Origin: Tubulanus polymorphus
Lineage: Eukaryota > Animalia > Nemertea
Assembly: GCF_964204645.1 (NCBI RefSeq)
Contig: NC_134036.1
Location: 7,788,812 to 7,852,811 of the forward strand
Reading direction: 5' to 3'
DNA length: 64,000 nucleotides
Position numbers and translations under genes: made by a program. Positions 10,571-58,782 of the stretch are shown in pieces. Positions within the stretch are counted from its first letter, which is position 1. Each line of letters opens with the position of its first letter. The notes below the pieces were generated by a model. The model was given only the letters and a program-made list of their open reading frames with translations. It searched no databases and had not been told where the DNA came from.

Positions 10571-10603
10571 ATAATATAGAAATAATATTAATGATATATA
10601 TAA

Positions 10604-19019: not shown

Positions 19020-21133
19020 TTTTTAGTATTGTCGATTCGTTTTATTAATTGGGGATATTTGACAGGGTGGACTGAGTATGAATAAAATAAAATGTTGAAA
19101 AGTAGGAAAATATTTACATAAAAACTGAAGTCATCCTCAATCCTCCTTGTCAAACATCCCCCAGTAACAAACGATTTAACCATTCTGAAAATTCTCGAAG
19201 AATACAAAACACGACTGAAGCCGAAATTGAAACAGATAAAAGAAAATGTTGAAAATTCGGAAAATATTCACATAACAAACTGAAGCCATATTCAATCCTT
19301 TTTCAAAAACATACCCCATTACAACAAACGCCTGTGCACATGCACACCTCAGTCGAATGCCACACACGCCACTTTTCACTCCAATATTTTCCACGCAATC
19401 CTCCCTGTCAAACATCCTCGAGTAACAAATGACTCGACCATACTGAATGTATACTTGATATAACAAAATAAGACCAAAGCCGATATTAAAACAGACGAAA
19501 TAAAATGTTGAAAATTCTGAAAATATTTACATAACTGAAGTCATCCTCACACCTCCTTGTCAAACATCCCTCGGTAAAAAACGACTCGACCATTCTGAAA
19601 ATGCTCGATAAAACGAAACACGACCGGAGCCGATATCAAAACAGATAAAAGAAAATAATGATAATTCGGAAAATATTTATATCAACAACTGATGTCATCC
19701 TCAATCCTCCTTGTCAAACATCTCCCAGTAACAAAACACTCGACCATTCTGCAAATACTCTAGAAAACGAAACACGACCGAAGCCGATGATAAAACAGAT
19801 GAAAAAATGTTGAAAATTCGGAAAATATGTTCATTAAAAACTGAAGTCATCCTCACTCCTCCTGGTCAAACATTCCCGAGTAACAAACTACTTATTCATT
19901 CTGAAAATACTCGAGAAAACGAAACATGACCGAAGCCGACTTTAAAACGGCTACGGGAAATTAGTGATAATTTGGAAAATATTTACATTAACAACTGAAG
20001 TCATCATCACTCCTCCTGGTCAAACATCCCCCAGTAACAAACCACTCGACCATTCTGAAAATACTCGAGAAAACGAAAGACGATCGAAGCCGATATTAAA
20101 ACAACTAAAAGACAATTTCGAAAATTTGGAAAATATTTACATTAAAAACTGAAGTCATCCTCACTCCTCCTTGTCAAACATTTCCCAGTAACAATTCAAT
20201 TGGTCATTCTGAAAATACTCTAGAAAACGAAACACAACTGAAGCCGATATCAAAACAGATAAAAGAAAACGTTGAAAATTCGGAAAATATTTACATTAAA
20301 ATCTGAAGTTATTCTCAATCCTCCTTGTCAATCATCCCCAGTAACAAAAGACTCAACCATTCTGAAAATACTCGAGAAAACGAAACACGACCGGAGCCGA
20401 TATCAAAACAGATAAAAGATAATGTTTATAATTCGGATAATATTTACATTAACAACTGATGTCATCCTCAATCCTCCTTGTCAAACATCCCCCGGTAACA
20501 AACGACACGTCCATACTGAAAATACTCGAGAAAACGAAACAGGACCGAAGCCGATATTAAAACAGATAAAATAAAATGTTGAAAATTCGGAAAATACTTA
20601 CATTGACAACTGAATTCATCCTCACTCCTCCTTGTCAAACATCATCCTGTGACAAACCATTTGACCATTCTGAAAATACTCGAGAAAACGAAACACGACC
20701 GAAGCCGTTATTAAAACACATGAAACAAAAGGTTGAAAATATTGAAAATATTTACACTAAAAACTGAAATCATCCGCAGTCCTCCTTGTAAATCATCCCC
20801 AGTAACAAACGAATCGACCATTCTATATAAACTTGATTAATCAAAACATGACCGAAGCCGATATTAAAACAGATAAAAGAAAATTTTGAAAATTCGGAAG
20901 ATATTTACATCAAAAACTGACGTCATCCTCAATCCTCCTTGTCAAAGATCGCCCAGTAACAAACCAATTGGTCATTCTGAAAATACTCAAGAAAACGAAA
21001 CACGACTGAAGCCGATATAAAAATAGATAAAAGAAAATGTTGAAAATTCGGAAAATATTTACATTAACAACTGATGTCATCCTTATCCTCCTTTTCTTAC
21101 ATCCCCGGGTAACAAACGACTCGACCATTCTAA
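19020..21133 (+). repeat. ~154-bp satellite array (~13-14 monomers)
   Basis: gaaaacgaaac anchors at 20223, 20376, 20530, 20684 (spacing 153-154). Confidence 0.95.
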
Positions 21134-24100
21134 AAGTAAAACAATTATCGGGAAAATTGGGCGCAATTAATCAAGAAATAGAAGAATATAATGCTATGAA
21201 TGGTGTAAATGTAAGAAAATATGATTTTAAACTATTAGCTAAAACATCTGAAAATTATATTTCATTTCAATTTGGTTGCATTAGATTTTTAGATTCTTAT
21301 AGATTTCTAGCAAGTTCATTAGATAATTTATCAAAAAGTTTAGTTGATAATGATTTTGTTATAACTCGATATTATTATCCAAATGAACAAGATTTTAAAT
21401 TATTGAGATATAAAGGTGCAATTCCTTATTCATTTTATAAAACACACAATGATTTTAATGTAACAGAATTATTAAAAGATCAATTTTATAATCAATTAAA
21501 AGAGGAGTATGTGAAAGACGAAGTGTTTAATAGAACATTAAATATTTGGAACCATTTTAAGATGAAAAATCATGGTGAATTAGTTGATTTATATTTAAAA
21601 TCAGACGTTATGATATTGGCTGACATATTTGAAAAATTTAGAGAAGTTAATTTGAATCATTTTAATGTTGATCCTTGTTATTGCTACTCTAGCCCTGGTT
21701 TAACCTGGCAATGTGGTTTAAAATATACAAATGTAGAATTAGATTTATTAAAAGAACCAGATATGGTTTTATTATTTGAAAAATCAGTTAGAGGTGGAAT
21801 TAGTGGTGTTATGGGAGATAGGTATTTTAAAGCAAATGATGAATATAAATTATTATATATTGACGCCAATAATTTATATGGTTGGGCAATGATGCAACCT
21901 CAACCACATGAAAATTTTATATTAACAGAAGTTGAAAATGGTGATAAAACTGATTGGGAAAGCGCAATTGCGAGTTTAAAAGATGAAGCACCAATTGGTT
22001 ATTTCTTTGTAGTTGATTTAGAATATCCTGAAAATATAAAGTTTAAAACAAGAAACTTACCTTATTGCCCAGAACATTTAACTGTAGATGATAGTTATTT
22101 AAGTGAATACCAGAAGAAAATAAAACCGAAAGATCATGTTTTTACAGAAAAATTAAAAATTACTCAAAATAATAAATACAATTATATTGTTCATTATAGA
22201 ATGTTAAAATTTTATCTAAAAAAAGGAATGAAATTAAAGAAAGTACATAGATATATTGAATTTAATCAATCGAAGTGGTTAGAAAAATATATAGATTTCA
22301 ATACTCAACAGAGAACAATATCAAATTAATCTTCAAATTAATGAATAATAGTTTTTATGGTAAAACATGTGAAAATATTAGAAATAGAAATGATATTGAA
22401 TTAGTAAGTAATTCTGAAAGATTAAGACATTTACAATCAAGTCCTAGACATTTAGGAAATAAAAGATTTGAAGATTATTTAACAGCAGTTAAATTGAAAA
22501 GAACATCAATGAAATTTAATAAACCTATATTTATTGGTTCGACTGTTTTAGAAGTATCAAAATTATTAATGTATGATTTTTATTATAATGTTTTACAACC
22601 ACTTTTTGGGGAAAAGCATATTGGAATATTATATTTTGATTCTGTAACAGCTGACACCCCAATATTATTAAAATGTAATGATAAAATATTGATAAGAAGA
22701 ATTTCAGAAATAATTCCAAAACAAAATGAATGTTATATTTCATATGGAGAAAAAGAATTAATACAAATAAATGGATTAATGGATGTTTGGACAAGAAATG
22801 GATGGAAAAAATTAAAGAATATTATTAGACATAAAACAAATAATAAAATCTATAGAGTTAGAACTAAATTAGGGTTCGTAGATGTTACAGAAGATCATAG
22901 TTTAATTAAACGAAATGGCGATGAAATAAAACCAACTGATATAAAAATTGGAGATGAATTATTACATAAAAGATTTTTCCAAAGAATGAATCATATGTCA
23001 TTTGATGAAATAATTGATAATATTTATAATATAGAACCCGAAACATTAGAAGAAAAAGAATATTTTATCAAAGGATTTTTCATGGGTGATGGTTCAGCAG
23101 GTGTGTATAATTATGTTAATCGCACTCAATATTGCTGGTATTTATGCAATCAAGACTTAAAATTATTAGAAAGAATTAAGAAATTCTGTGAAGAAGTTCA
23201 TTCACATAAAACATTCAAAATCATAGATGTTATGAAATCATCGCAACGTTATAGAATACATGTGAATAATCATAAAGATTTTGCTATAAAATATAATAAC
23301 GAATTCTATATTCATGCAATAGTGAAAAGTAATACTTCAACTAAAGAAAAGATAGTTCCAGATTATGTATTAAATGCAAAAAATTATTTAAGAAAATGGT
23401 TCTTCATTGGATTCTACGCAGCCGATGGTACTTAAAGTTTCAAAAACCGCAAAACAATATCTTTAGCTCAAAAAGGAAAAGTTGCTATATCAGGATTAAA
23501 TATATTATGCAATTCATTAGGTTTTAATATGAATATTGGATTGATTAAATCTAAACCAAATTGCTTTAATTTAAGCCATGTAGAAAATGAGTTAACTGAA
23601 GAAGTTAAAGATTTATTTGAAATATATAACCCAACAGATTATGTTTATGATTTATCAACTGAAGATGGTACATTTAACTGTGGATTTCCATTAATAGCCA
23701 AAAATACTGACGCCTACATACTAAAAATCAAGACAAATGACATAACAAAAGACTTAAAAACATTAAAACATCATTTTGATTTTAGCAATTATCCCAAAGA
23801 TCATGAACTATTTAGCAATGATAATAAAAAGATTCCTGGTAAATTTAAAGATGAATTAGGGGGTGATGAAATGATTTAATTTGTTGGGATAAGAAGTAAA
23901 ATGTATAGTTACAGAACAAAAGATCATGAAGCTAAAAAGTTAAAAGGAGTAACAAAACATGTGGTTGATAAACATATAGAATTTCAAGATTATATAAAGT
24001 GTTTATATAAATCAATTGTAATGAAACACAAAATGAATTGTTTAAGATCAGAAGATCATGAGATGTACATTAATGAAGTTGAAAAAACTAGTTTAAATCC

Positions 24101-24161
24101 ATTTGATGATAAAAGGCATATTTTAGATGATGGTATAAAAACATTAACTTATGGTCATTAA
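21134..24161 (+). pseudogene. polB: Protein-primed family B DNA polymerase containing an intein; 5' truncated, frameshift ~22320, stops at 23433 and 23877
   Basis: FLDSYRFL, YLKSDV (ExoIII), YIDANNLYGWAM (motif A), KLMNNSFYGK (B), YFD..TD (C, split by intein), GKFKDE, KLKGV, DDKR. Confidence 0.95.
22641..23705 (+). mobile_element. Intein with LAGLIDADG homing endonuclease (355 codons, one in-frame TAA at 23433-23435)
   Basis: Block A SVTADTPILLK right after YFD; block B VTEDHSL; block C FIKGFFMGDGS; block E FFIGFYAADGT; block H-like KGKVAISGLNILCNSLGF; block F YVYDLSTEDGTF; block G LIAKN then +1 Thr. Absent from the second polB (YFDTDS). Confidence 0.95.
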
Positions 24162-24520
24162 AACATAAAATCAATATCATCATACTCGAAATCACTATTG
24201 GCTTCTTCATTTTCATTTAATTGTTCATGTTCTTCTTCCATTCCATTTTTCTCATTTAAATAAAGTTCTATCTTGTTCCACATTTCATCTCGCTCTCTTT
24301 GTTTCTTTTTGTTTGTTAATTCATCAAATGGAATTATAATATCTATGTTTAAATAATTTTCAATCTTATTTAAAAAGAATTCATAATTTATTGAATCTGT
24401 TATTCTATTTTCTAAATGATACATTAATATTTGTTTGAATATTTTTTTTATATTTTCCGTATCTTCTTCTGATAATTTAGGTTTTTCATAATAATCGTTA
24501 AATAATAAATATAAATACAT
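24158..24520 (-). CDS. Hypothetical protein with acidic C-terminus
   Basis: 120-aa ORF convergent with polB. Confidence 0.55.
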   Translation of the reverse strand: MYLYLLFNDYYEKPKLSEEDTENIKKIFKQILMYHLENRITDSINYEFFLNKIENYLNIDIIIPFDELTNKKKQRERDEMWNKIELYLNEKNGMEEEHEQLNENEEANSDFEYDDIDFMF

Positions 24521-24536
24521 TTTCTTTTCTTTTGTG

Positions 24537-25060
24537 TTAATTAAATTTTGACGGAATAATTGTATTTATAATATCTTTTTTAGTTATTTCACCATTTTTA
24601 TTTTCTATTATTTTCATTTTTTCAAGCCATTGCATATATTCTGGTGTATGATCTTCCATAGAAAATATTTCATCTAGATAATTTAATTTTGGATCTATGA
24701 GAAAATCTCTAGTTTTTTCTTCACCCAATAAATTCTTTTGCCATCCACATTCATTACAAAATAACACAGTACCTTCTTGTCTTAAGGTCGCTTAACTACA
24801 TTGTGGACATTTTCGTTTATAATTTATTGGTAATATATCTTCATTAAGCTCCTGGTATTTTCTTACGTTTTCTTTATGTTTTATTGTTCTATTATGTAGA
24901 TTTGAATTACTTGTTGTAATAATCAATTTACAATATTTACAATAATATGTTTTTCTTGTTAATTCATTATATTGTTTTTCTAACTTTTCAACTGTTTCTT
25001 TATTATCTGGTAACGTTTTCTCATATTTTATTTTTTTTTATAAATTATTTTTTCTTTCAT
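24537..25060 (-). pseudogene. Zinc-finger / zinc-ribbon protein, disrupted
   Basis: Reads YYCKYC...HNRTIKH then CPQCS*...CNECG; ATG at 25060. Confidence 0.6.
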
Positions 25061-25064
25061 TGAA

Positions 25065-25469
25065 TTAAGTTTCAAATTTATTAGAAATTTTATCTATATG
25101 TGCTTTACGAAATTGATGATTCTCCCAATCTTCTATATTTTCAGGGCTATATTTTATTCGACAAGGCTCACAGAAATGATCTTTTATATTATCCTTATCA
25201 TAGAATAAGAAAGGTCTTTTCCAAATAACTTCAGGTTCAACTTCGGCAGAATTACTATTACTTTCATTACTATCAACATTAGCCGTTGCGCCATTAATTC
25301 TACACTTCTCTGAATGTTTTTTAACATAATTTCTTGAGAATAATTTATTACATTTTGGGCAGTTTATTTTAGGGGGTTTATAATTTTCATCATGTTTTTT
25401 CATATGTCGAGCCATATTACTTTTTCTTAGAAGTTCACCACAAATTTCGCATGCTATCTTCTCATCCAT
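25065..25469 (-). CDS. C2H2-type zinc-finger protein
   Basis: CEICG..MARHMKKH; CPKC..KKHSEKC; CEPC..H....H. Confidence 0.75.
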   Translation of the reverse strand: MDEKIACEICGELLRKSNMARHMKKHDENYKPPKINCPKCNKLFSRNYVKKHSEKCRINGATANVDSNESNSNSAEVEPEVIWKRPFLFYDKDNIKDHFCEPCRIKYSPENIEDWENHQFRKAHIDKISNKFET

Positions 25470-25537
25470 TTATTTAGGAACAATTTTATTAAAATTAATT
25501 TTTAGTGATGAGCGGTAATTTTTTTATGTTATAAATA

Positions 25538-26294
25538 ATGGTAGAATTAAAAGAATACAGAATATTTGTTGATTCAAGAAAACTTACAAATTATAAATCT
25601 CATAATTTACTAGTACAATTAGATAGAGAATATAAGAATTGTGTAGATTTAAAATTAGTTAATATAAGTTTATGTAATTCTTTTTATAATATATCGAATA
25701 AAACTATTGAACATAATACTTTTTTAATTCATATTAGAAATATAAATAAATGGTTTCATCTATTTCTAAGACCAGGATTATATAATTTAGAAACATTAGC
25801 TCAAGAAATTAATCGTAGAGCACGGTTGAAAATTAGAAAAGATGATAAATTTTTAATAAGATTTATAAAAAGTGATAGCTCAAATAAAATTAAAATAAAG
25901 GTATTTGATGAAAGTCAAAATGCATTTATAGTAAAAAAACCATTAGCTAAATTGCTAGGAATTGCACCAGATGTTGTTACAGTAAACGTAGAAGGCATTT
26001 CAAATATAGTACCTTTAACACACTTATATTTATTGCAATTTAATTGATCCTACAAAAACATTTGAAGCAACTAAAGATACAACATGTAATTCTAGTATAT
26101 TAAATATTTTACCATTGAAGAATGTTAAACAATTTGGAGCGCAAATAAATTATAATTTAACAGAAAGTGATTTCAAACCTTGTATTCCACATTTCAATAA
26201 TTTTAAATTAGAAATAAGAAATCATAATGGTTATTTAATTGATTTGAATAACTTTCCTGTAATATATGAATTAGTTATAAGATGTAGAGAGTAA
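25538..26294 (+). pseudogene. Minor capsid protein (penton-like), frameshift ~26030
   Basis: IFVDSR...LVNISLCNSFYNI...PGLYN; shifted C-terminus YCNLI...LEIRNHNGYLIDLNNFPVIYELVI, resembling Polinton minor capsid proteins. Confidence 0.75.
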
Positions 26295-26310
26295 TTTTTT
26301 CATTATATAA

Positions 26311-26667
26311 ATGAATATAACTGTTGGGCCGAGCATATGTTTTGGATTTGATTTTAAACGTGAGAAAAAAATGAAATTTAACATTACTGATGTAATTACA
26401 CATATTAAAAATATTGCATTTTCTAATGAAACAACATTTGAGTATGAAACAACAATAGATAAAGAAACTTTAAATGTAGAAAAGATTACTAATTTAATTA
26501 GAGAATCTTTAAGATTTTATGAATTAGATGAAGATTTTATCATCGATGATATTAAAAAAAAAATTATTGAAATATATACAAATGAAACTAGTAATGAAAT
26601 AAATGTTGAATTAATCATAAATAAGTTAACTAAATATTTTGATGATAGTAATGTTTTTGATAAATAA
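26311..26667 (+). CDS. Conserved hypothetical protein (homolog at 63190-63550, -)
   Basis: 118-aa ORF with TAAATG start; conserved in the second element. Confidence 0.7.
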   Translation: MNITVGPSICFGFDFKREKKMKFNITDVITHIKNIAFSNETTFEYETTIDKETLNVEKITNLIRESLRFYELDEDFIIDDIKKKIIEIYTNETSNEINVELIINKLTKYFDDSNVFDK

Positions 26668-26889
26668 ATGAGTGATAATAAGTGGATAATAACTGGATTA
26701 TATAATGGCGCATTACTATCAGTTGGAACTGTTGGTTATTCAATGGTATTAAAAAAAGTATTCAAAATGGGAAGTGTTAATGTTGATAGATTTGATATCA
26801 ATGATATCTTAAAATTAACATTAGCAGTTACTTTATCTTATTTAACTATTGATTATTTGGAAAAACAAAAATTTATTCCTCCCATATAA
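26668..26889 (+). CDS. Small hydrophobic protein
   Basis: 73 aa with two hydrophobic segments; homolog split by a HINE at 61712-63189. Confidence 0.7.
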   Translation: MSDNKWIITGLYNGALLSVGTVGYSMVLKKVFKMGSVNVDRFDINDILKLTLAVTLSYLTIDYLEKQKFIPPI

Positions 26890-26913
26890 ATGCATAATTT
26901 TTTTGCTAAATAA

Positions 26914-27336
26914 ATGGCTTCTGCAATTATAACTATTATAGGATCGGCAATTGTTAACGCTTTAGCATTTACTGGTGGTGGATATTTATTTAAACACATT
27001 GATAAAAATAGTTCATTAGGAGAACAAAGAAGACATAATTTAGCATTACAGAAATACAATAAAGCAGCAGAAGAATATAGAGAAAAACGACAAAACTATA
27101 TGGATTACATGAATAAAGAATTATATGATCAGAAGATTTCACATAGAGATTTTCAATCAGTTGATGATGCAATGAGTTTATATAACGCAGTAACAAATGA
27201 AGAAAAATTACATCTATACAAACCTAAATTATCAGATTATTATACCCCAAGTAAAGAACAACAGAAATATGAAATAATTTGGATTTTAGGTGGAACTGTT
27301 ATTGTTATATTTGTTGCTTATAAGTTTACTAATTAG
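26914..27336 (+). CDS. Putative virion membrane protein (N- and C-terminal hydrophobic helices)
   Basis: 140 aa; intact, highly similar homolog at 61265-61687. Confidence 0.8.
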   Translation: MASAIITIIGSAIVNALAFTGGGYLFKHIDKNSSLGEQRRHNLALQKYNKAAEEYREKRQNYMDYMNKELYDQKISHRDFQSVDDAMSLYNAVTNEEKLHLYKPKLSDYYTPSKEQQKYEIIWILGGTVIVIFVAYKFTN

Positions 27337-27356
27337 TAATTTTTTTTTTTAAATAA

Positions 27357-27782
27357 ATGGAAGATAATATTGATATTATTCCTCATGATATAAATAAAAC
27401 TAATTTAAAAATATATTTAGAAAAACAAATATTAGAATTTGAAAGTGATTTAAAAGTTAAAAAGAAAAAATATTTAAAAAGTAAAATTATATATTATTTG
27501 ATTATTAGTGGTTCGGTTACAATTAGTCCTGTAATAACATTTCTAGCAATATTCAGTCCATTAACACCTTTAGCTATATCAATTGGTGTATTAGGATTAA
27601 GTTCAAGTGTTTTAACCGGTATAAGTTCAAAATTAAATATAAAAAGTAATAAAGAAAAAATTAAAACTAATATAAAAGAAATTAATAAATTAAAGAACAC
27701 ACTAGTTTATATAATCAGTTTAAATGGTCATATAACAGTTGAAGAACAAGATAAATTATTAAAAGAATTAATAAATTATTAA
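27357..27782 (+). CDS. Two-TM protein flanked by coiled coils (SLATT-like architecture)
   Basis: IIYYLIISGSVTIS...LAISIGVLGLSSSVLTGIS hydrophobic hairpin. Confidence 0.7.
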   Translation: MEDNIDIIPHDINKTNLKIYLEKQILEFESDLKVKKKKYLKSKIIYYLIISGSVTISPVITFLAIFSPLTPLAISIGVLGLSSSVLTGISSKLNIKSNKEKIKTNIKEINKLKNTLVYIISLNGHITVEEQDKLLKELINY

Positions 27783-27798
27783 TTTTTTAATTATATAA

Positions 27799-29156
27799 AT
27801 GGCAGATAGTTTTCCAAAAGCTTTCCAATATAATAAATCAATTAAATATAATATTCCAGCAATAGATTTTAATAAAGATATTACATATAGAAATGAAGTT
27901 TTAAATTCATTAATTGATTTATATATTTATGTTACTGAAAGTAATAATTTTCATGTAAAGATGGAAAATATATTTCATGTAAAAAATTGAAAGATGAAAA
28001 ACAATGGTTATTAAAATCTAATATGAAGTATTGGCAGAACCAATTAAATATTGCTGTTTATTGTGCAACAACAGGATGTGGAATTAGTTTGAATGATCAT
28101 TTGAATAATTCTAAATATAAATTAATTCAAAGTTTATTTAGATTTCATACATGCTTTCAAATAAGAATAATATTAAATGAATTAGAGTGCGCTTTACCAG
28201 GATCAAGATATTTTAAAGAATTAGATAATAATATTAATTTATCAAAGTTTTATAAAATTTGTAATGAATTTAATATAGATATAAATAATTCTGATTTTAG
28301 AACAAAAATTGGAACAATAAGATCACTTCCTTTCCCTAAAAAGATTGCAGAATATTGTGCACTTCCCATACCATCTAATAGTTTGTATAATATCTATAGT
28401 CATAAATTAGGTTATGGTAAAAATGAAACTAAGGATTTAGAAACATTAAATTTTAATAAATTACCGACATTTTATGATAATTTAATACAAGAAAACAATA
28501 ATGGTTGGGTTTATTTCATTTTAGAAAATAATGAAGGTTTTACTAAATCAGGTATACAAAGAATAAATCAATCTATTAGAACTTATTTGATATGTATTTT
28601 AGGTGCGCAAGTTGAAACAAGATCACCAATAATTGGAAATTTGAATACATCATTCGATACACAGAAACAATTTAAAGTTTTATTTGAAGATTCAATTCAT
28701 AATGATAAAAATAGATCGATTCCAGAAAACATTATAAGATATCAAAATTATTTAGATAAATCACATATTAGATTAAATTATTGTATAGGTCCTAATCTAT
28801 TAATTATTTCTAATGATTTAGTATTAAAGATGGGAAATATAATTGGTTATAATAATCTAATTAAAACTGCAACAATAAATAATTCATTTGGATTAAATGA
28901 TATAAATAAAAAGATTATTACTGCTCCAAAATTAATGGAAGGTGAAAAAAATAAAAAACATATTCAATCAACTAAAAATATTAGATTAAATAATGATTCT
29001 AAACCGGATTATAATACATCAGAAGATATAGAAACTGATATTATTCAACATGATATAATTAAACTAAAAGATGATAATAAATCCCATGAAAATACTAAAT
29101 TAGCTATAACTTGTATAGGAATTGTAATCGGAGGAATATTATATTTTAAATTTTAA
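27799..29156 (+). pseudogene. Conserved hypothetical protein with C-terminal TM, frameshift ~27985
   Basis: Joins ORFs 27799 and 27987; YWQNQLN.AVYCATTGCGI is conserved in the 59642-60806 homolog. Confidence 0.75.
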
Positions 29157-29172
29157 TTTTTTTATTATGTAA

Positions 29173-30787
29173 ATGGCAGAAGGTGAAGGTTTTCCATTGG
29201 ATGACATGGGAAATAATCATGAAGGATATATTGATGATGAACCACAACCTGATTTTAATGAAACTAATATTGATAATGATGATGAATCAGCATATGATTC
29301 TAATTTAGCAGATAGTGGTTCTAAAGTCCCATCAACAGATGAATTTGATAGAAGAACTAGATCGAAAATAAATCCTGAAAATGAAATGCCAGGTTTATCA
29401 AAGGAAGATATAGAAAATAATAAATTTATATATAAGTTTCAAGATGTATTTGTAAGATCTGGATATAATATAAATGATAGAGGCGCCAGACTTTTAGTAC
29501 AAGATTTAAAGTTTTTAGATGGTGAATATTATTATAAATTGAAAGATGATTATTATATTAACATCTCTTATAAAAATCAAAATATAATATTAGCAGAATC
29601 AACTTTGCTTAAGTAAGAACCAGATAGAATTAAGAGAATAATTAATAGTAATGAAATAACTGATGTAACACAAACAGAAATGAAAAAAAAATAGAAAAGA
29701 ATTCAAACAAAGAATTGATGACTTATTTAAAATAATCGATGATAATCCAGAAACGGAAATGGAAGAGAATAGAGATCGATTAGATAAATTAAGATCTTCA
29801 ACACCCGAAACATCTAGAAGAGATATTCAACAAATTGATAATGATTCAAATCAATTACAAGTAGTAAAACATTTTGATAAAATGTTTGATACAATTCATT
29901 CATTTGACGAAGAGATGGATAGTATTTTAGATACACCCGGTACTGAAACTGGAATAAATCGAATACTATCTTTACTAGAAAAAGGAATACTTGATTTAAC
30001 TGATGATGAATTAGAAGCATTTCCTGAACAAGCACGTAGAGAAATTAAAGGTATGCAAGAATCAGCTGGTGAAATTGCTAATATTAAGATGAGATTTTCT
30101 AAAATAACCATGTTAGAAAAAGAATTAACTAATGCAAATGAAGAATTAAAACAATTAGAATTAAATAGAGATCTTCAATTAATCGAGGAAGCTGATTATG
30201 AAAGCAGAAAGTTAGCTTTAGAAAAAGAAATAGATGATTTAAAATATAACAAAGAATTACAGGAAAAAGAAAGAGATACATTTTTAAAATCATATGATCT
30301 TAATCATATTAAAAAATTAAAAGTTATTTTTAAAGATTTGTTGATAAAACCAGATTCTAAAATATCATTGAAAGATAGAATAAAGTTATTATTTAAATTA
30401 GAAGGAATAACAATTCTTTCAATTCTAACAGCTGTAACTATGTTATTTACAACAATTGGTTTAGCAATATCAAATGCTTTGAAATCTACTCCTACTCCCA
30501 ATAAACCAGATAAACCCCCGAATGATAATAATTCTATACAAGATAAAGTTAAGGATGGTTTAAAGAAATTAGCAAAATATTTATGGGAACTATCTAAAAA
30601 ATCTGCTGCAGCTTTACCAGGAGTTATTGCATCAATTGTTGGTTTTATATTGAAATCTGCTGGGAATATTCTTAACTTTGCTGCTGAACATATTATTTTA
30701 TTTTTAATTACAGTTGTAAGTGCTATTATTTTTGGGTTAGTAAATATGATATCAAAAAGATATCAAGAAAAAAATAATAAAAAATAA
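29173..30787 (+). pseudogene. Large acidic/coiled-coil protein with C-terminal hydrophobic helices; stop at 29614 and frameshift ~29690
   Basis: Joins ORFs 29173 and 29759; ITILSILTAVTMLFTTIGLAIS and LPGVIASIVGFILK...IILFLITVVSAIIFGLV. Confidence 0.7.
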
Positions 30788-30811
30788 ATAATTAATTTTT
30801 TTGTTTAATAA

Positions 30812-32059
30812 ATGAGTGGGAGTTATATAAGTCCTTCTAAGATTTCTAGAATATCTAATGCTATTAAAGCAGAAAGATCACATCATATAATTACTCATAA
30901 CCCTTCAAATATTAATCCCGATGAAACTTTATATTTTAGGATTCCTAGATTAACACAAAATACTTTTTATGTTCCAAATAGTATTTATTTATCAGCCGAT
31001 ATAAAAGTAACTGGCCATGATAACAATTACGTTGTTGATAATGTTGGAAGATATTTGATTAAAAAATTAACTATAAAGATTGGTCCGGAAACAGTTTTCT
31101 CATTAGATGATTATAATTTATCTATGCATTATAAAGATTTATGGTTAACTAAAGAAAATAGAAATAATATGATATTTCAGGGTATTCAATCGGAAAACCA
31201 TAATGAATTAAGATCAGGAACTAATGACGCAATAGTAACTCGTGCCACAGATAATTTGATAAAAAAGATTTATGGAAGCAAATATAAAATTCCATTAGAC
31301 TTTGAATTGATAAATAATAATGCACCTTTATATAAATACGCAATTCAAGAAGATATTATATTTGAGATAACATTTGCTCCTGTAAATGAAATTGTATTAT
31401 CTAGCGTTGTTAAAGATATGGGTTATAAATTATCGAATATATGTTTAGAATATAACACAGTAACTGATGAAAATATTGCTAGCACAATTCAAACTCAATA
31501 CAATCAAGGATTTTCATTATTATATGATTATATTGATAAATTTAAAACCGTAACTATTAATGCAAATGATGAAATAATTAATGAGAATATTAACTTCCCA
31601 AGAAGATCTATTAAAGGTATATTAATATATTTCACCATTGCAACATATTCTAATGGTGCAATAAAGGTAGATAATTATTATAATCCTGAAATAACAAAAG
31701 TAGAAATAACTATCGAAGGAATAGCAAATAAAATATTTTGCCAAGGAATGAGAATGATAGATCAGTGGCCAGAAATTAGAAAACATTTTATGAATGAAAA
31801 AGTAAAATCATTTGAAAATTGTAATATTAATCAAATTGATTATTATACCGGCAATAAATATGCATTATGGTTAGATTTTAGAACAACATAGGATAATTCA
31901 TTACATGGTTCAGGAAAAAAATTACAAAACACTAAAGATGGAATACAATTATTCATGGCGAAGAAAAGAGGGGACAAAAATTTCAAAATGCACATTTATA
32001 TTATATCTGACGCGCAATTAAATATTGTAAATTCACAATTAGATAGTATTCAATATTAG
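30812..32059 (+). pseudogene. Major capsid protein (inferred double jelly-roll), 415 codons with one TAG at 31889
   Basis: ITHNPSNINPDETLYFRIPRL, KIPLDFE, LSNICLEY, NFPRRSIKGILI, ALWLDFRTT*DNSLHGSG; the frame continues to TAG 32057-32059. Confidence 0.8.
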
Positions 32060-32089
32060 AAATATAAAGTTAAAATTAAGGATATATAA

Positions 32090-33216
32090 ATGGGTGATAA
32101 AAAAACTCATAATACTAAAGAACAATATTTAAGAAATTTATATTACAACCCTGAGAGTTCAGTTGCTTATTCTTCTACTAAAAATATATGGCGTCAAGTA
32201 AAACAAGATAAATTAGATAAGATAATCCCACAGAATTTAGTTAAATATAAAGATATAAATGAATTTATGTTAGAACAACCAACATATACAACACATAAAA
32301 AAATTGTTAGAAAATATAAAACTCGTAAAACTATGGTAAGTTATGTAGATCAACAGTGGCAAGGAGATTTATTGATATGAAAAATGTTAAGAAAGATAAT
32401 GATGATTATTGGTGGTTATTGAATATAATTGATATTTTTAGTCGTTATGTATGGAGCTTCCCACTTTATAGAAAAGATGCTGTACAAACATCAAATGTTT
32501 TAAGAAAATTTCTTTCGGATGATAAACTAAAACCAGAAAAAATACAATTTGATGATGGAAAAGAGTTTGATAATTCACCTGTTCATGAACTCTTAGATAA
32601 TCATAATATTAAATATTTTTCAACAAAATCAGATAAAAAAGCAGCAGTTGTTGAACGATTTAAAATAGAACATTAAGAACAAGAATGTGGAAATATTTTA
32701 CAGCAAATAATACTTTTAAATGGATTGATTTTTTACCAAAATTGATAGAAGGATATAATAATTCTTATCATTCTTCTATTGGAATGAAACCTATTGATGC
32801 TAGAAAACCTGAAAATACTGCAATTGTTTGGAATAATTTATATGGAGCATTTCTTGTAGGTGATTTTGGTGAACCTAAATTTAAAGTTGGTCAAAATGTT
32901 AGAATTTCTAAGTATAAAAAGATATTTGATAAAGGATACGATCGAAATTTTACTAGAGAAATATATAAAATAAAAAAGGTAATAACAACAAAACCATATG
33001 TCTATAAATTAGAAGATTTAGATGGTGAAGAAGTTGATGGCTACTTTTACGAAGAAGAATTAAGTTTAACTACTGAAAATCTAGAACAAGAATATAAAAT
33101 TGAAAAAGTATTAAAAACAAAAATATAAAAGAAAAAAATATTCTTTAGTAAAATGGGTTGGATGGCCAGATAAATTCAATGAATGGATATTATCAAGTAA
33201 AATTAAAAATATATAA
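32090..33216 (+). pseudogene. int: Retroviral-like (rve) integrase with C-terminal chromodomain; frameshifted
   Basis: QWQGDL (D), QFDDGKEF (D), AAVVERF (E), YNNSYHSSIGMKP; chromo-like YKIEKVL...LVKWVGWPDKFNEWI. Confidence 0.92.
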
Positions 33217-33825
33217 ATGAATAAAGAATTATTTATATTTGAGCCTCATAATATGTTAATATCTGGCGTAACAAATTGTGGAAAAACTTATTTTATATTA
33301 AATTTATTAGAAACTGTTTATGAAAACTATTTTGATAATATAGTATTATTTTGCCCAACGTATGAACTTAATCAAACTTATGATAGAAATAGTACTAGAA
33401 ATAATAAATTTATTATATTAGATCCTAAAACAGTAGAAGAAAATTTAGATAATTGTATAAAAATAGCAATTGATATTTATAAAGGATCAAATACATTATT
33501 CATTATAGATGATTGCGCTAATTTACATGATTCAAAAGTGAGAGAAAGTGAGTTATGTTATCTAGCTTTCTCTGGAAGACATTTCGGGATAACAACATGG
33601 GTTTTAAATCAAAAATATAATTCAATTGTTAAAGACTTTAGAGAAAACATTAGATTTCTAGTTTTATTCTACAATAAAGATAGAAAATCAATGAAAAATG
33701 CACTTGAGGAAAATGATATTATTCCACATGATTTACATAATGAATATATGGATAAGTTGAAAAATATTAAAAGATCAAAATTACTATTTAGATTACAACA
33801 CCCATTTAAATATGAATTTATTTAA
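33217..33825 (+). CDS. Genome-packaging ATPase (A32/FtsK-HerA family)
   Basis: Walker A GVTNCGKT, Walker B FIIDD, GRHFGIT...NQ, FREN. Confidence 0.9.
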   Translation: MNKELFIFEPHNMLISGVTNCGKTYFILNLLETVYENYFDNIVLFCPTYELNQTYDRNSTRNNKFIILDPKTVEENLDNCIKIAIDIYKGSNTLFIIDDCANLHDSKVRESELCYLAFSGRHFGITTWVLNQKYNSIVKDFRENIRFLVLFYNKDRKSMKNALEENDIIPHDLHNEYMDKLKNIKRSKLLFRLQHPFKYEFI

Positions 33826-34100
33826 ATTCAACTAGCTTGTTAATATAGTTGAATTCTAGTTACATTCCAGTTGAATTCTAGTTATTGGTAGTTGTAACAA
33901 AAATCAACTAGATTTAACAATATTTTAACTAGCTTGTTAATCTAGTTTAATTCTAGTTACATTCTAGTTGAATTCTAGTTGTTAGTAGTTGAAACAAAAA
34001 TCAACTAGATTTAACAAGAAATAAACAAAAACAACAATATTTCAACTAGCTTGTTAATCTATTTGAATTCTAGTTACATTCTAGTTGAATTCTAGTTGCA
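33825..34100. repeat. Intergenic tandem repeat (~97-118-bp units) built from aactag/ctagtt inverted motifs and GAATTC
   Basis: Three caactagcttgttaat.tagttgaattctagttacatt units. Confidence 0.85.
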
Positions 34101-34129: not shown

Positions 34130-34735
34130 ATGGTAGGTGAAAAGAAAATAAAATCTAAAAATGGTGATGTTCCAATTGAAAAAACTTTAGATGATTTAGG
34201 AATAACAGAAACAAAATTAACTCCAGATGATGGTGCTTTAAATATTGTTACAACAAATAATAATTATGAATATTATCTTTATTGTAAACATCAATTAGAA
34301 ATATTAATAGCATCTGGAAAATGTAAAAATTTTGTCGGTAAAAATTTAACTTATAATGAATTAGATACAATGAAATCAGATGAAATTATTAGATTATTTA
34401 AGATTTATGAAGCCGCGAGAACAGCTAAAATTAATGACGCGATATCAGAAAATGTAGTAAAAGGTTATAGTAAATTATGTAATTATATACTACCAATTGA
34501 AGATGAAAATAGATTATATTCCGATTTAAAAAATGATTATTTAGTTATGACTGAATTAAATAAATGGATTGGATATTTATCGTTTCAATTAGGTGGATTT
34601 ATGACATTATTATCAACTGGGGTTATAACATTTTCAAATATTGAAAGTAAAAATATTTCTATAATAAATGAGCGAGGTGAAAGAAGTGAAGGAATTAACT
34701 GTGAAGAAAAGACCGAGAACTCAGAAACAAATTGA
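34130..34735 (+). CDS. Conserved hypothetical protein (homolog 50782-51323)
   Basis: 201 aa; IEKTLDDLGIT, YCKHQLE and SFQLGG are conserved in the second element. Confidence 0.75.
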   Translation: MVGEKKIKSKNGDVPIEKTLDDLGITETKLTPDDGALNIVTTNNNYEYYLYCKHQLEILIASGKCKNFVGKNLTYNELDTMKSDEIIRLFKIYEAARTAKINDAISENVVKGYSKLCNYILPIEDENRLYSDLKNDYLVMTELNKWIGYLSFQLGGFMTLLSTGVITFSNIESKNISIINERGERSEGINCEEKTENSETN

Positions 34736-35034
34736 ATGGTCTCGGCAATTAGGAATTAAATCACAAGAATATAAAAAAGCTGTAAAAGAAAAAATAAGTA
34801 ATAAAATGTTAATAAAAATGGTGAAAATATTGTTATTTCTACTCCTTCTGATAATAGAATATTTGATAAATATTTATATTTTACAGTTGGATTTGTAATT
34901 GTATTCATTTTGATTGGGTGTAATTGGTATAAGAAATCAAATAAAATTCATGATATTAGTAATTCTGAACCAACTGCTATCAAAAATGAAAGTACTTCTG
35001 AAATTCCAAAATTGATAATAAAAAAATGGATTAA
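34668..35034 (+). pseudogene. Small basic protein with TM segment, frameshifted (homolog 51320-51680)
   Basis: KQIEWSRQLG vs KQIKWARELG; hydrophobic FTVGFVIVFILIG in the shifted frame. Confidence 0.6.
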
Positions 35035-35496
35035 TATTTTAGAAAAAAAGCAAAAAAAAATAATTTTTTTTAATTAATTGAATATCTCACTACTTTTGTC
35101 TATCTATGCGGAGCAATTAAATTGTCCAGATAAGTCATTTCGGATTCTAGATATTCATTATTCTTATCAATTTATTTTGTTTTTACTTGAATATTGTATT
35201 ACAGTCGTTTCTTATTATTAGTTTTTTCTTAAATTGAAAGATGACAACACTGGGTATGGTAAAATGAATATTTGAATTTGAATTTGAATTTGTTTATCAA
35301 TTAACATAGTAATTGATTACTAATTTGATTAAAAATTATATCATAATTAAGTTAAAAATCCATAATTCATTTATCAGTTTTCATTCTTATATTCTTTTCA
35401 TTCGAAATAATTTATAATTTCAAATTTCACATATTTTTTTAGCACCAGCAACATTTACTTAGGTGTTTTAGCTAAGTATATAAGGCAATTCATTCA

Positions 35497-35796
35497 ACCA
35501 CTGGAGTGCCGCCGGGCTTGGCTTGCAGGGGCATTTCGAAAATGCACCTTTGTCCACCCTCCGCGGTTCTCCTTCAGTTTCGACTTTCGATCCTCCTTTC
35601 GGGGGTAAGGGGTTGATAGGAAATGCATTAGGCGCCTTAAATATAATGTGTTTCCTGTCAACCATTGAAGGAGAATTGGTGAGGCGTGGGTCACAGGGGT
35701 GTAAGTAGAAATGCTTGGGGATAGGTATCTCGTGGCGCCTCTCAATAACGGGATGCTTATCCCCTAAAAACTCTGCGAGTCAAGTCGGGTGGTTTT
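35497..35796 (+). ncRNA. Candidate highly structured viral ncRNA
   Basis: Stems 35515-30/35771-86, 35531-37/35708-14, 35543-53/35693-703, 35565-78/35664-77, 35611-30/35644-63, 35717-33/35748-64; all non-WC pairs within them are G.U on the + strand; upstream TATATAAG; ends in TTTT. Confidence 0.7.
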
Positions 35797-36153
35797 GCTA
35801 AAACTTACCGTAAAAACATTGAAATATTCCTTTTAATCACGAGAGAATGATGACTATCCTCCTGTCGTCACGGCCGAGCTAATTTAAATAAACCTCGCTT
35901 TCAGCAACCAATGAAAACGTGGTGGTTCAATGCCGGCTAACTGGCTTGTGTGTGTTGTATGTACTGCGTGCTTAATATATTACTGCTAGCTATCCAATAT
36001 AACAACAACGTTGTGCAACACCTGTTTGATTGATCAATATTCAAATGAAGCACTCTCTCATAATAACATGTAACAGATGTTTGACTGTATGATTGTAGTT
36101 GTTTATAAAACGACTAAGGTCATTTTTAGATATTCATTATTTTTATTTTTTAT

Positions 36154-36480
36154 TTAATCAACAATTTCCAAATCATGATGACCGTCTTCATTTTTCCCAT
36201 GATATATTATTTTAAATCCTACTAAATCTTTCAATTCCTCTGTACTCAATGAAACCCATTTATCGGGTAAAAACACTTTAAATTCTCGTGATGTACTAAC
36301 ATTACAGTAGCTTAAATTAGCTGATACTTTCTCTCCATATTTAGTTTTTATCTTTTCTAATTTCAATATCTTATGTTCAATTTCTTTTGTAACATCAACT
36401 AACTTTTTTATTTCAAATTGTTTTTTTGTTGGTTTAATTCTGTTATTTATTGTTGCTAAGAATGCTTTTCTATTTTCCAT
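36154..36480 (-). CDS. Putative OB-fold ssDNA-binding protein
   Basis: 108 aa; KIKTKYGEKV..L...FKVFLP pattern suggests a small beta-barrel SSB (inference). Confidence 0.5.
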   Translation of the reverse strand: MENRKAFLATINNRIKPTKKQFEIKKLVDVTKEIEHKILKLEKIKTKYGEKVSANLSYCNVSTSREFKVFLPDKWVSLSTEELKDLVGFKIIYHGKNEDGHHDLEIVD

Positions 36481-37199: not shown

Positions 37200-40100
37200 C
37201 CGGATGAACCGCCAAATAATAATAATTCTATACAAGATAAAGTTAAAGATGGTCTAATGAAATATGCAAAATATCTATGAAAATTATCTAAAAAATCTGC
37301 TGCACCATGACCAGGTATTAAATAATTATTTCATATTCAACACGTTCAAGATTGATTATTGAAAATTTAGATCAAGGACTAGAAAAAAAAGAATTCTATT
37401 ATGATGATTTAATTGATAATTTTAAACCAATATAGACAAAATGTGGATTTAATGTAACTAATAAAATGTGGAGTATTTGGCACCAGATTTGAAATATTTA
37501 GATGGTGATTATTATTGGCGTTTCAAAGATGACTGTGATTTTAAGATATCTTCTTATAAATGTCGTGATAAAATAGTAACAAAATCAACTTTGGCTAAAT
37601 TAGGACAATCTAGAATTAAAAGAGTAAGTAATAAGAATGATATAACTGATGTTACAGAACAAGAAATAACTCTAAATAGAAGAGAATTTAATCAAAGAAA
37701 TGATTATATTTCGAAGATGATTCATGAAAATTTAGAACCAGAAACAATCCCTAAAGAAGTTATTAATTCAAAAACCAGTAAACCTAGATCATCGGGATTT
37801 CAAACTGAAAAACTTTTACCGGAAGGAGTAATTGGTTTGACAGATCAATAAATAGAAGCTTTAACTATGTTTCATGAACAATTCCTCTGAGAAATTATTA
37901 GTATAAGAAATGAAGCTGAGAAAATTGTACATGAAAAAATTACGACTTTTGAAGATTAATCATCTAAATCAAATAAAGAATAAGAACAATTAAGATCGGA
38001 TTTAGATCGTCAAGTAATTGAAGAAATGTAATATAGACAAAATGAATTACGTTTAGAATAAGAAATTGATAATTTAAAAGAAAATTCAAAAGTACAGAAA
38101 AAGAAAAAAAAAATGATTAATTCAAATCAGGTGCTAATAGAATTTAAAGATTAAAAGATATTTTTAAATAATTATTAATAAATAAAACCAATTTTTGAAT
38201 TATCATTAAAAGATAGAATAAAATCATTATTTGAATTAAAAGGTATAACAAGATGGTCTAAAGAAATTAGCAAAATATTTATGGGAATTATCTAAAAAAT
38301 CTGCTGCAGCATTACCTGGAATTATGACATTAATTGATCGTTTTATTTTTAAAGTCTGTTGGAAATATTATTAGTTTTACTGCTTAACATATAATTGTAT
38401 TTTTAATTGCAGTTGTTAGTGCTATTATTTTCGGATTTTTAAATATGATAAAAAGTAGATAAGTAAGCTTTTTTATTAATAACTGGTGAATGTTAATTAT
38501 ATAGATCCTTCAAATAATTCGAGAATATCTAATGCAAATCAAGCAGAACGTAATCATCATATAATTTCTCAATCCTTCAAGTAAAATATTAATCCAAATG
38601 AAACTTTATATGTTAGAATTCCTAGATTAAATCAAAATACTTCTTATGCTTATCAAGCAGTATGTATTTATCAGCTGATATAGAATTAACTGGTAATAAT
38701 AATAATTATGTTGTAGATAATGTTGTTAGATACTTGATACAAAATTTAGGATGAAAATTGAACCGGAAACTGTTTTTACATTAGATGATTATAATTTATT
38801 TGCATATTATAAAGATTTATGGTTAACAAAAGAAAATTGAAAAAATATGATATTTCTAGGAATTCAAACAGAAAAATGAAAATAAATTAAGATCAAAAGC
38901 AAATAATGCAATAGTAACTAATGCTGCAGATAATTTAATAAAAAACATTTATGGAAGTAAATATGAAATTCCATTAGATTTTGAATAATAAATAATAATG
39001 CACTTTTATATAAATATGCAATTCAAGAAGATATAACATTTGAAATAACTTTTGCTCCTGTAAATGAAATAGTATTATCTAGTGTAATTAAAGATATGGG
39101 TTATAAATAATCGAATATATGTTAAGAATATGACACAGTAAAACTGTAACTATTAATGCAAGTGATGAAATAATAAATGAAAATGACTTTCCTATAAGAT
39201 CTATTAAAGGTATTTTATTATTTATCACCTAAGTATATGCTAATGGCACAATAGATGTTAATAATCATTATAATCCCGAAATATTAAAAGTAGAATCAAA
39301 TTGATTATTATACTGGTAATAAATTTGCATTATGGGTAGATTTTGGAACAACTGCAGATAACTTGTTACATGGTTCTGGGAAAAAATTACAAAATACAAA
39401 AGATTGAATACAATTAAACATGATAAAGAAAAAAGGAATCGATGATTATAAAATGCATATTTATATTTATTCTGATGCGCAATTAAATATATCAAATTCA
39501 CAATTAGATATTATTCAATATTAATAATATAGAAATAATATTTGTGATATATAAATGGAGAATAAAATATATCGCAATCCTAAAGAACAACATCTAAGAA
39601 ATTTGTATTATAATCCTGAGAGTTCAGTCTAGGCTGAGAGTTCAGCCTATTCTTCTGTAAAACATATATGACGCCAAGTAAAACAAGATAAATTAAATAA
39701 GCTAATCCCACAAAATTTTGTAAAATATAAAGATATGAATGAATTTACGTTAGAACAACGTAATGAAAAATGAAAACCCTTTAAAGCAATGAAAAATCTT
39801 TAAAAAGATAATATTGGTTGATATTGAATATAATTGATTTTTTAGTCGTTATGTATGGAGTTTCCGACTATCCAGAAAAGATGCTGTACAAACATCAAAA
39901 GGTTCCAGAAAATTTCTTTCAGGTCCTGCGAATCCAGAATAAAATAGAATTTGATGATGGAAAAGAATTTGATAATTCATTTGTTCATGGACTCTTAGAT
40001 TTTTTAACAACATTGGATAAGAAAGCAGCTGAAGCAGAGAACAAGAATGTGGAAATATTTTACAGCAAATAATACTTTTAAATGGATTTATATTTAACCA

Positions 40101-40815
40101 AAATTAATAGAAGGATATAATAATTCTTATCATTCGTCTATTGGAATGAAACCTATTGATGTTAGAAAATATGAAAATGCTGAAATTGTTTGCCATAATT
40201 TATATGGAGCATTTCTTGTAGATGATTTTGGTGAACCTATCTATATAAAGTTGGTCAGTAAGTAATAACAACAAAACCATATGTCAATGAATTAGTAGAT
40301 TTTGAAGGTGAAGAAGTTGATTGGTAGTTTATGAAGACGAATTAATTCTAACTACTGAAAAACTAGAACAAGAATATAAAATTGAAAAAAAAAATTAAAA
40401 ACAAAAACTGCTAAAGAAAAAAATATTCTTTAGTAAAATGAGTTGGATGGCTAGATAAATTTAATGAATTGATATCATTAAGTGAAATTAAAAATATGTA
40501 AATCAATGAGGAATTATTTATATTTCAACATCATAATATGTTAATTTCTCGTGTAACAAAATGTGGAAAAACTTATTTTTATATTGAATTCATTAGAAAC
40601 TGTTTATAAAAACTATTTTGATATATTAGTATTATTTTGTCTAAGATATGAATTCAATAAAACTTATAATAGGAACATTACTAGAAATACTAAAATTATT
40701 GTATTAGATCCTAGATTGTATTAGATAACAGTTAAAGAAAAATTAAGATAATTGTATTAAAATAGCAATTGATACATTGATACATCTAATACATTATTTA
40801 ATATAGATAATTGTG
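37200..40815 (+). mobile_element. Decayed Polinton fragment C (coiled-coil gene, MCP ~38487-39520, integrase ~39555-40502, ATPase 5')
   Basis: Colinear with fragment A, shares its lesions (e.g. aaaattga stop in MCP) and the downstream gtaagcgggcattc sequence. Confidence 0.9.
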
Positions 40816-49793: not shown

Positions 49794-49889
49794 AAGAATG
49801 CTTAAAATTAATAAGAGAAGAAAGAAAAGAGAATTAGATTATGAAAAGGATTCCAGCACGTTAATCAATTAAAAATAAATATATTATAA

Positions 49890-50665
49890 ATGGAGAGTAA
49901 ACAGTCACAAACTAACAATATTCACCATAAAAAATGTTCAAAATGTGAATTGAATAAGCCATTTACAGAATATTACACAAAAAAAACTAAGAAAGATGGT
50001 TTAAGAAACAATCGTAAAAGATGTTGGAAACAGAAGAATAAACTGTATAATAAACAATGTTATATAGATAATATTGAAAAATATAAAGATAGAAGTAAAC
50101 AATATTATCTAAATAATCTAGAAAAATGTAAAGAAACGAAAAAACAATGGAGAGAAAATAATCCAGAATATATTAGAGATTGGAAAAAAGAAAATCGTGA
50201 ACATTATGATGATTACAGTTATAATTATCAAAAAGAAAGGCGTCAAACAGATCTTAATTTTAAAATGAAACAATGTTTGAGAAATAGATCATCAAAATTA
50301 TTCAGTAAAGAAACGCATTTAGAAACGCTAAAAAAATTCCTTGGATTGTTCAGATGAATTTCTCAAATCATGGATTATATATCAGTTCGATGATGAAATG
50401 AATAAAGATAATTATGGAAATTATTTTCATATTGATCACGTGTTACCAATATCTAAATTTAACACGAGTGATGAATACAATAAAAAAACTAATTTGGAAT
50501 TGGAATAATCTAAGACCCATTGAAAAGAAAGAAAATAAAATTAAGTCTTACAAACTTGATATGAAATTATATTTTGATCAATTAGATAAAGCAAAGAAAT
50601 TCATCGAATTATGGAATAGTGATCCAAATAATGAACAATATGTTGAATCTTTATTGAGTGGTTAA
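49890..50665 (+). pseudogene. Zn-finger / helical repeat / HNH-type endonuclease, frameshifted
   Basis: CSKC...DGLRN; shifted frame FHIDHVLPISKF then WNWNNLRPIEKKEN. Confidence 0.65.
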
Positions 50666-50781
50666 AGATTAATATATCTCAAATCTTCAACTAGCTAGTA
50701 TTTAAAATTCTTTTACTTCAAATGGCTAGTATCATTTGAAGAATAAGTATATTATTTTTTCCGCTTTTTTTGCTAAAATAA

Positions 50782-51680: not shown

Positions 51681-51686
51681 AATAAG

Positions 51687-58612: not shown

Positions 58613-58660
<48 letters not shown>

Positions 58661-58782
58661 CATTATTATTATTATTATTATTATCATTAATATGTAGTAG
58701 AGCTATGAAATATTATGAACTGTTCGATTTGACATTGTAGATCTATATGATTATGAAATATGCAAATTATATCAGGGTGACA
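56708..58782 (-). mobile_element. Internally deleted Gypsy-like LTR retrotransposon
   Basis: TG..CA ends; 4-bp TSD tatc/tagc; 3' LTR 56708-57329, partial 5' LTR 58590-58782; PPT-like aagggggc next to the 3' LTR; integrase C-terminal-like remnant at 58352-58588. Confidence 0.75.
57100..57212. repeat. (GCTATC)n microsatellite in LTR; (ATT)n at the equivalent position 58613-58690
   Basis: Seen directly. Confidence 0.95.

Follow-up and report, generated by a model that had tools for sequence, protein, structure and literature searches.

A structured RNA with twin palindromic loops in an optional Polinton cassette of Tubulanus polymorphus, predicted to be a U6-type Pol III gene

Introduction

Adenoviruses, the carriers of the VA RNAs, belong to a lineage of viruses with a protein-primed PolB that is kin to the Polintons, and the bocavirus BocaSR is reportedly a structured viral Pol III RNA. 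Structural elements of a comparable kind are the three-way junction of the phi29 pRNA and the retroviral dimerisation loops, in which a self-complementary hexamer lies within a hairpin loop. VA-I is described in passages of PMC6599070 as a wobble-rich RNA with a loop-loop pseudoknot that targets PKR and Dicer, and sections of PMC4378190 report both that certain viral RNAs (HSURs and EBERs) have host miRNAs or proteins as binding partners and that Dicer cuts VA RNAs and a number of viral hairpins made by Pol III. Three signals, a TATA box, a PSE and a T-run terminator, are used for calling Pol III genes (PMC4287351, in excerpt), the TATA box of type-3 (U6) promoters lying at -31 to -24 according to an extract of PMC3958870, with further promoter background in portions of PMC2582628 and PMC9652321. 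Polintons have been treated as protein-only elements; judged by titles and the starts of abstracts, literature searches listed no description of a Polinton-borne structured, Pol III or VA-type RNA, and the terms 'noncoding', 'RNA gene' and 'VA RNA' do not occur in the adintovirus paper PMC8502044.

Here, an analysis is presented of a 64,000-nt stretch of the Tubulanus polymorphus genome (contig NC_134036.1, positions 7,788,812 to 7,852,811; hereafter the window), within which a preliminary description, made from the letters alone, had proposed an RNA of about 300 nt.

Results

The preliminary description had placed in a Polinton an undescribed RNA forming a GC-rich island in an AT-rich element, with no credible ORF, six stems that pair without mismatch once G.U is allowed, twin GGCGCC loops, two three-way junctions and a G.U bias that it read as selection on the plus-strand RNA, and all of these points except the second of the junctions were borne out (Table 1). 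The GC content of the RNA is 0.51 versus 0.18 in its 5' flank, and the only frame of at least 90 aa in the region is a stop-to-stop frame of 103 aa on the minus strand, for which neither a Pfam match nor, in proteins of 56-181 aa, a homologue was found. All 85 positions of the claimed helices are canonical (69 Watson-Crick and 16 G.U, with no mismatches), and both hairpin loops carry the hexamer as quoted and are unpaired with a probability of at least 0.91. The proximal junction is three-way, whereas the distal junction is four-way in the minimum free energy (MFE) structure, where it includes two small hairpins (35580-90 and 35592-605), and an extra terminal helix (35508-13/35788-93) closes the molecule.

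Table 1. Features of the predicted RNA gene, its cassette and the surrounding Polinton, in window positions
Feature	Position	Strand	Remarks
Degraded Polinton core	21031..33825	+	Broken pPolB with intein-like insertion, VLTF3-like, zinc finger, truncated capsid, split integrase, A32-type ATPase; from Pfam
Truncated capsid ORF	30812..31891	+	Matched to double-jelly-roll proteins by a low-confidence model (pLDDT 49.7)
Two conserved Polinton ORFs upstream of cassette	34130..35077	+	76% to sibling locus L001 9403-10228
Direct repeat, left copy	35146..35162	+	336 reads leave reference at 35153; empty-site joints start at 35155-35182
PSE-like box	35443..35458	+	Weak match; near -65, 18 nt before TATA box
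TATA box	35477..35483	+	TATATAA; starts 31 nt before G35508 (predicted start site)
Predicted Pol III transcript	35508..35796	+	289 nt, first paired G to first TTTT; read families part from 35508 on, agree again at T run
Terminal stem, 5' arm	35508..35530	+	22 bp; partner 35771-35793
Trunk, 5' strand	35531..35578	+	41 bp; partner 35664-35714
GAA(AA) strand of putative sarcin-ricin/loop E-type internal loop	35538..35542	+	Unpaired opposite AGUA
Four-way junction with two small hairpins	35579..35610	+	B-box-like 9-mer with one mismatch at 35585
Long hairpin 1	35611..35663	+	20 bp; loop 35631-43, GGCGCC at loop start
AGUA strand of putative sarcin-ricin/loop E-type loop	35704..35707	+	Faces GAA 35538-40
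Long hairpin 2	35717..35764	+	17 bp; loop 35734-47, GGCGCC at loop start
TTTT terminator	35793..35796	+	Only T4 run in unit, directly after terminal stem
Direct repeat, right copy	36125..36141	+	Empty-site joints have their right ends at 36146-36152
Conserved Polinton ORF downstream of cassette	36154..36480	-	74% amino-acid identity to L001 125-469
Claimed helix, 16 bp	35515-30/35771-86	+	
Claimed helix, 7 bp	35531-37/35708-14	+	
Claimed helix, 11 bp	35543-53/35693-703	+	
Claimed helix, 14 bp	35565-78/35664-77	+	
Claimed helix, 20 bp	35611-30/35644-63	+	
Claimed helix, 17 bp	35717-33/35748-64	+	

The plus strand folds with an MFE of -159.9 kcal/mol (z -12.33, equalled by 0 of 200 shuffles) versus -95.2 kcal/mol (z -4.08) for the minus strand, and the plus-strand structure holds 109 pairs, 19 of them G.U, at a mean pair probability of 0.967, with 108 of the 109 retained when 60-200 nt of flank is added. 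In a folding scan of 638 windows of 300 nt, the RNA was the top outlier on the plus strand (robust z -11.4), the next being a satellite (robust z -7.0), and was ordinary on the minus strand (robust z -2.2); fold-back repeats elsewhere in the window have folding scores that are alike on both strands. Folding as DNA gave z -7.8 for the plus strand and -3.7 for the minus strand.

Variation among copies was drawn from genomic reads of four runs of one study and of a raw WGS run from another study with the same species label (X5, of which 12% was read; the kind of run is unrecorded for X4); no RNA run was among those listed as containing the stretch. Depth over the RNA was 470-720 in X5, and in X4, among many rare contigs at a depth of 40-47, two RNA families at ~1650 and 920-1360 suggest tens of copies each. 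There is at least one diverged RNA family among the many genomic copies: a second family accounts for ~40% of X5 reads over hairpin 2, one contig piece, aligned gap-free, has 25 differences from the reference in 131 nt, and the loose ends listed at the RNA are high-agreement families rather than scattered flanks. Among the variants listed (40 of 98 rows), 17 substitutions lie in the unit, at 6 unpaired and 11 paired sites. Ten of the 11 listed at paired sites keep a canonical pair when scored with the reference partner, compared with 58.7% of random transitions (P ~0.025); no compensatory change on both sides of a pair was seen, the partners in diverged families being under the 80% limit. Three of these ten (35776-78) sit beside indels, leaving 7 of 8 without them, most of the ten come from one family, and the listed substitution at 35714 breaks the pair with its reference partner. 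In the stem of hairpin 2, pairing is kept by all five listed substitutions. None of those listed falls in either GGCGCC, though each hexamer holds a CpG (a listed change affects 4 of the unit's 15 CpG sites), and two in the loops, at 35639 and 35741, increase the likeness between them. Across the whole stretch, the substitutions show no strand asymmetry (A>G 16, C>T 20, G>A 18, T>C 16), and mutation bias therefore does not explain the G.U excess. Because of the G.U pairs, the strand asymmetry and the structure-keeping substitutions between copies, it is very probable that the RNA structure, as read on the plus strand, is under selection.

Two GGCGCC hexamers occurred by chance in 0.34% of 5000 shuffles. 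Any pairing of the two loops, in which both hexamers are self-complementary and exposed, is worth -14.1 kcal/mol, and among the other unpaired segments of the RNA there was no pairing below -4 kcal/mol. The trunk between the junctions consists of 41 bp with two small internal loops, against which the kissing side, made up of hairpin 2 (17 bp), the kiss (6 bp) and hairpin 1 (20 bp), would measure 43 bp. The loops would meet were hairpin 1 to fold back at the four-way junction, and the helix lengths favour an internal kiss; on this geometry, a GGCGCC-GGCGCC contact within one molecule is the preferred arrangement, held at about even odds, and partner swapping between molecules may also occur. 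AGUA facing GAA is given as a sarcin-ricin sequence in a portion of PMC1865062, and the corresponding internal loop of the trunk is, as judged by its letters, a putative sarcin-ricin/loop E-type motif.

The signals flanking the fold predict that the RNA is probably a type-3 (U6-type) Pol III gene. The chance of a TATA start falling in the 5-nt slot in this element is ~2%, the predicted +1 is a purine, and 17% of shuffles are without an internal TTTT. A PSE in a type-3 gene was sought at about -66 to -46 and 18-22 nt before the TATA box, and the PSE-like box agrees at 9 of 15 positions with the human H1 PSE (as printed in an excerpt of PMC1790723), a human sequence and not that of the host, which 0.9% of window positions match as well. 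Of the genomic reads, 170 agree with the reference as far as 35507 and depart from it there; within the 3' arm, groups of 78 and 52 reads depart and agree again from the T run. The promoter and terminator are thus common to the read families, and the sequence of the terminal stem varies. Right after the terminator there is a second PSE-like box (35804-35822) that agrees with the human U6 PSE at 12 of 19 positions and is the window's only exact match to its first 10 nt; it has no TATA, and is followed after 66 nt by an A and, near 36101, by a partial motif resembling a 3' box. In this 3' part of the cassette, which folds weakly (z -1.9), 109 reads delete 35847-35946, and the box together with 35870-36110 is possibly a decaying second unit of Pol II snRNA type.

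In the 64 kb, no Rfam family was matched at gathering score (one chance match lay outside the unit, and there were two chance matches at E<=10), no tRNA was found, no miRNA family scored in the Rfam search, and there was no credible match to the VA covariance model at E<=10. A scan for motifs of RNase P, SRP, Sm and telomerase templates found none, with a single GAUC, and 7SK, SRP, RNase P/MRP and telomerase RNA were rejected on the blank Rfam search and this negative scan, leaving some room for a very diverged host RNA. A search for a VA-type internal promoter found no A box and no exact B box, only one B-like 9-mer with a mismatch; the hammerhead core CUGANGA was not found, nor was any Rfam ribozyme matched. 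A SINE or MITE was rejected in view of the lack of an internal promoter and of terminal inverted repeats, and of the loose ends listed, which are families.

Queries with the capsid, the ATPase and the ORF at 34130 had no match in the viral or genome contig collections. A metagenome scan gave 27 related loci, of which only L001 reaches the RNA site; the RNA was found in none of the 27 by blastn or by twin-loop pattern, and when 12 of these loci were scanned for folding, over windows with a GC of at least 0.30, none scored below robust z -3.4. The twin-loop patterns had 6 and 13 matches in viral contigs, none of them with the fold, and none in genome contigs or phages. Across the metagenome loci, viral contigs, genome contigs and phages, no homologue outside the source species was found, and from these sequence searches the RNA is best classed as a candidate new family with no known relatives.

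The Polinton that carries the RNA at its right end is degraded and was recognised by its Pfam domains and by the capsid model of ORF 30812, which at a pLDDT of 49.7 matches the capsid folds of vaccinia D13 and PBCV-1; this capsid has 402 relatives, the named ones including a bivalve protein at 38%. Within the pPolB (22266-23879) there is an intein-like insertion, with PF14890 at E 4e-4, under the cut-off. A 17-nt direct repeat bounds a cassette of ~1 kb, at whose ends there is no inverted repeat of more than 8 nt. Joints that skip the cassette are carried by 6, 13 and 13 reads (reads and contigs), and at the right repeat 194 of 354 reads cross with a shared 6-nt insertion that lengthens the repeat. 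In X5, depth was 250-555 over the upstream ORFs (one bin at 955) and 680-1414 over the downstream ORF, that over the RNA being similar, and in X4 the cassette, at 2600-9800, was well below the ORFs at 14000-79000. The promoter and 3' part of the cassette have a host-like GC content of 0.37.

Sibling L001 is 73-82% identical over the shared genes, has a deoxynucleoside kinase gene (10340-10981) at the cassette site, where the RNA is absent, and contains no scanned segment with a GC of at least 0.30; as this contig is without pPolB and ends, an RNA elsewhere in the element is conceivable. The RNA is also absent from a further copy within the window (47918-53393), in which the same ORFs run straight into the integrase; none of the three remaining fragments extends over this place. 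Because some copies and both of the siblings that cover the site are without it, the RNA is accessory cargo of some Polinton copies, not core packaging machinery. Absence from sibling elements had been named in the preliminary description as a point against its proposal; that point applies in part, the RNA being absent from 2 of 2 covering siblings.

Several further observations concern the organisation of these elements. Four extra Polinton fragments (7772-11953, 37476-40813, 47918-53393 and 56032-64000), 68-91% identical to the main one, degraded and with shuffled gene order, sit among satellite arrays of 153-154 bp, and into the minus-strand Polinton fragment a host repeat of 1.25 kb is inserted at 61848-63103, with a minus-strand folding bias at 61801-62100. 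A 68-bp intergenic motif is 88% identical between 35081-35148 and L001 2451-2517, at different gene junctions and in opposite orientation; an inverted repeat encloses the L001 copy, reads in the window often switch neighbours just after the motif, which may mark the border of a module or a place of recombination. About three tandem units of 97 bp that contain imperfect palindromes around GAATTC separate the ATPase from ORF 34130 (33827-34100) and resemble the hr origins/enhancers of baculoviruses. In metagenome loci L002, L003 and L005, the integrase-ATPase block is inverted relative to the capsid gene.

Discussion

The RNA family appears to be real and new, a variant of viral Pol III RNAs, whose gene and fold are well supported and whose function is inferred. 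The reading put forward here by analogy, at a rough probability of 0.4, is that of an optional Polinton gene of U6 type, transcribed by Pol III, whose RNA is locked by an internal GGCGCC kiss and acts as a VA-RNA-like decoy against host dsRNA defences. Host SNAPc/TBP would start Pol III at G35508 and transcription would stop at TTTT; hairpin 1 would then fold back at the four-way junction and its loop pair with that of hairpin 2, the side of 17+6+20 bp lying aligned beside the trunk to give a compact, wobble-rich particle. In the last and weakest step, this abundant, nuclease-resistant mimic of dsRNA would occupy Dicer or another dsRNA sensor, helping the active element.

The conserved loops and free stem sequence fit a protein- or RNA-binding role equally well, and the RNA of the same Pol III gene might present one motif twice, without a kiss, and act as a sponge for a dimeric protein or a host RNA. 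The likeness of the loops extends into their 3' parts, further than a kiss would require, the listed substitutions at 35639 and 35741 make the loops more alike, and viral RNAs binding host miRNAs or proteins do exist (HSURs and EBERs, in the same sections of PMC4378190); however, the shared hexamer is an all-GC palindrome, palindromes making up 1 in 64 of all hexamers, and a closed kiss agrees with the helix lengths, so that a binding platform of this kind is judged unlikely. A similarly low probability is given to an RNA gene with a U6 promoter, selfish or of host origin, that rides along on Polintons, and perhaps on other elements, with no benefit to the virus. A host origin of the cassette is conceivable, and its optional nature, its bounding direct repeats, the host-like GC of its promoter and 3' part and the second PSE-like box at 35804 are all in keeping with such a passenger, but reads join the cassette to Polinton sequence at both ends, the loose ends listed at the RNA are high-agreement families and the structure is kept across families.

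An oligomer-forming RNA, with loops that kiss between molecules into rings or cages and that works with the ATPase or capsid in structure or packaging, would draw on the self-complementarity of both loops, by which any two molecules can pair, on the three-way junction and on the ATPase and capsid genes nearby. It is nevertheless quite improbable, given the absence of the RNA at the site in L001 and in copy 47918-53393, the empty-site reads, a geometry that fits an internal kiss and identical palindromes that give a ring no direction. Long near-perfect stems of 17-22 bp and predicted Pol III ends would equally suit a Dicer-processed precursor, from whose stems small RNAs silence host or element genes, a fate described for VA RNAs and a number of viral hairpins made by Pol III (PMC4378190, same sections); such a precursor is very unlikely here, as the stems vary between families and the loops are kept, the reverse of a guide precursor, and no miRNA family scored. 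A decayed DNA fold-back (a palindrome or MITE), a SINE or a retroelement with a ribozyme is already largely refuted and extremely unlikely: the unit is multicopy and its plus strand folds as DNA at z -7.8, but it is multibranched and not one inverted repeat, the minus strand reaches only z -3.7, true fold-backs in the window are strand-symmetric, the cassette ends have no inverted repeat of more than 8 nt, the upstream promoter is kept in copies and there is no hammerhead core.

With a Pol III RNA borne by Polintons, the range of viral decoy-type RNAs would reach beyond adenoviruses to endogenous relatives of these in invertebrates, under another type of promoter, and the twin palindromic loops with a loop E would constitute a new RNA fold. 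A bolder and rather unlikely extension is that invertebrate Polintons have VA-like RNA genes of their own via a borrowed U6 promoter, and that this one is a new 'RNA origami tile' fold, closing as a monomer or swapping loop partners into rings or cages used by the virus.

Of the analogies drawn in the preliminary description, that with phi29 pRNA and packaging is weakened by the missing RNA in both siblings covering the site and by the Polinton copies without the cassette in reads. The three-way junction and the self-complementary hexamer in an exposed hairpin loop are shared with phi29 pRNA and the retroviral dimerisation loops respectively, from which the present RNA differs in having two identical palindromes in one small RNA, in its absence from siblings and in not being part of a genomic RNA. 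The likeness to sarcin-ricin/loop E lies in AGUA opposite GAA in an internal loop, a recurrent motif only, in an RNA that is not rRNA. EBERs and BocaSR are likewise structured viral Pol III RNAs, EBER1 being wobble-rich, but come from different virus groups, and no sequence or fold match to them was found. With type-3 Pol III genes (U6, 7SK, RNase P/MRP and Y RNA) the locus shares a TATA box at -31, a PSE-like box and a T4 terminator, and with 7SK and RNase P RNA a length of ~300 nt, and it is set apart from them by the lack of an Rfam match, its single GAUC and its carriage in a mobile element. The VA analogy is strengthened by the Pol III layout. At 289 nt versus ~160 nt, the RNA is longer than VA RNA and has an upstream TATA box and PSE-like box in place of internal A and B boxes; a four-way junction, loop E, 6-bp palindromic loops and an optional cassette are found here, with no Rfam match, and the tetrastem belongs to VA. 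In common with adenovirus VA RNA I/II (as described in the cited passages of PMC6599070), it has, as predicted here, a Pol III-type unit, paired ends with a U tail, many wobble pairs and a loop-loop contact.
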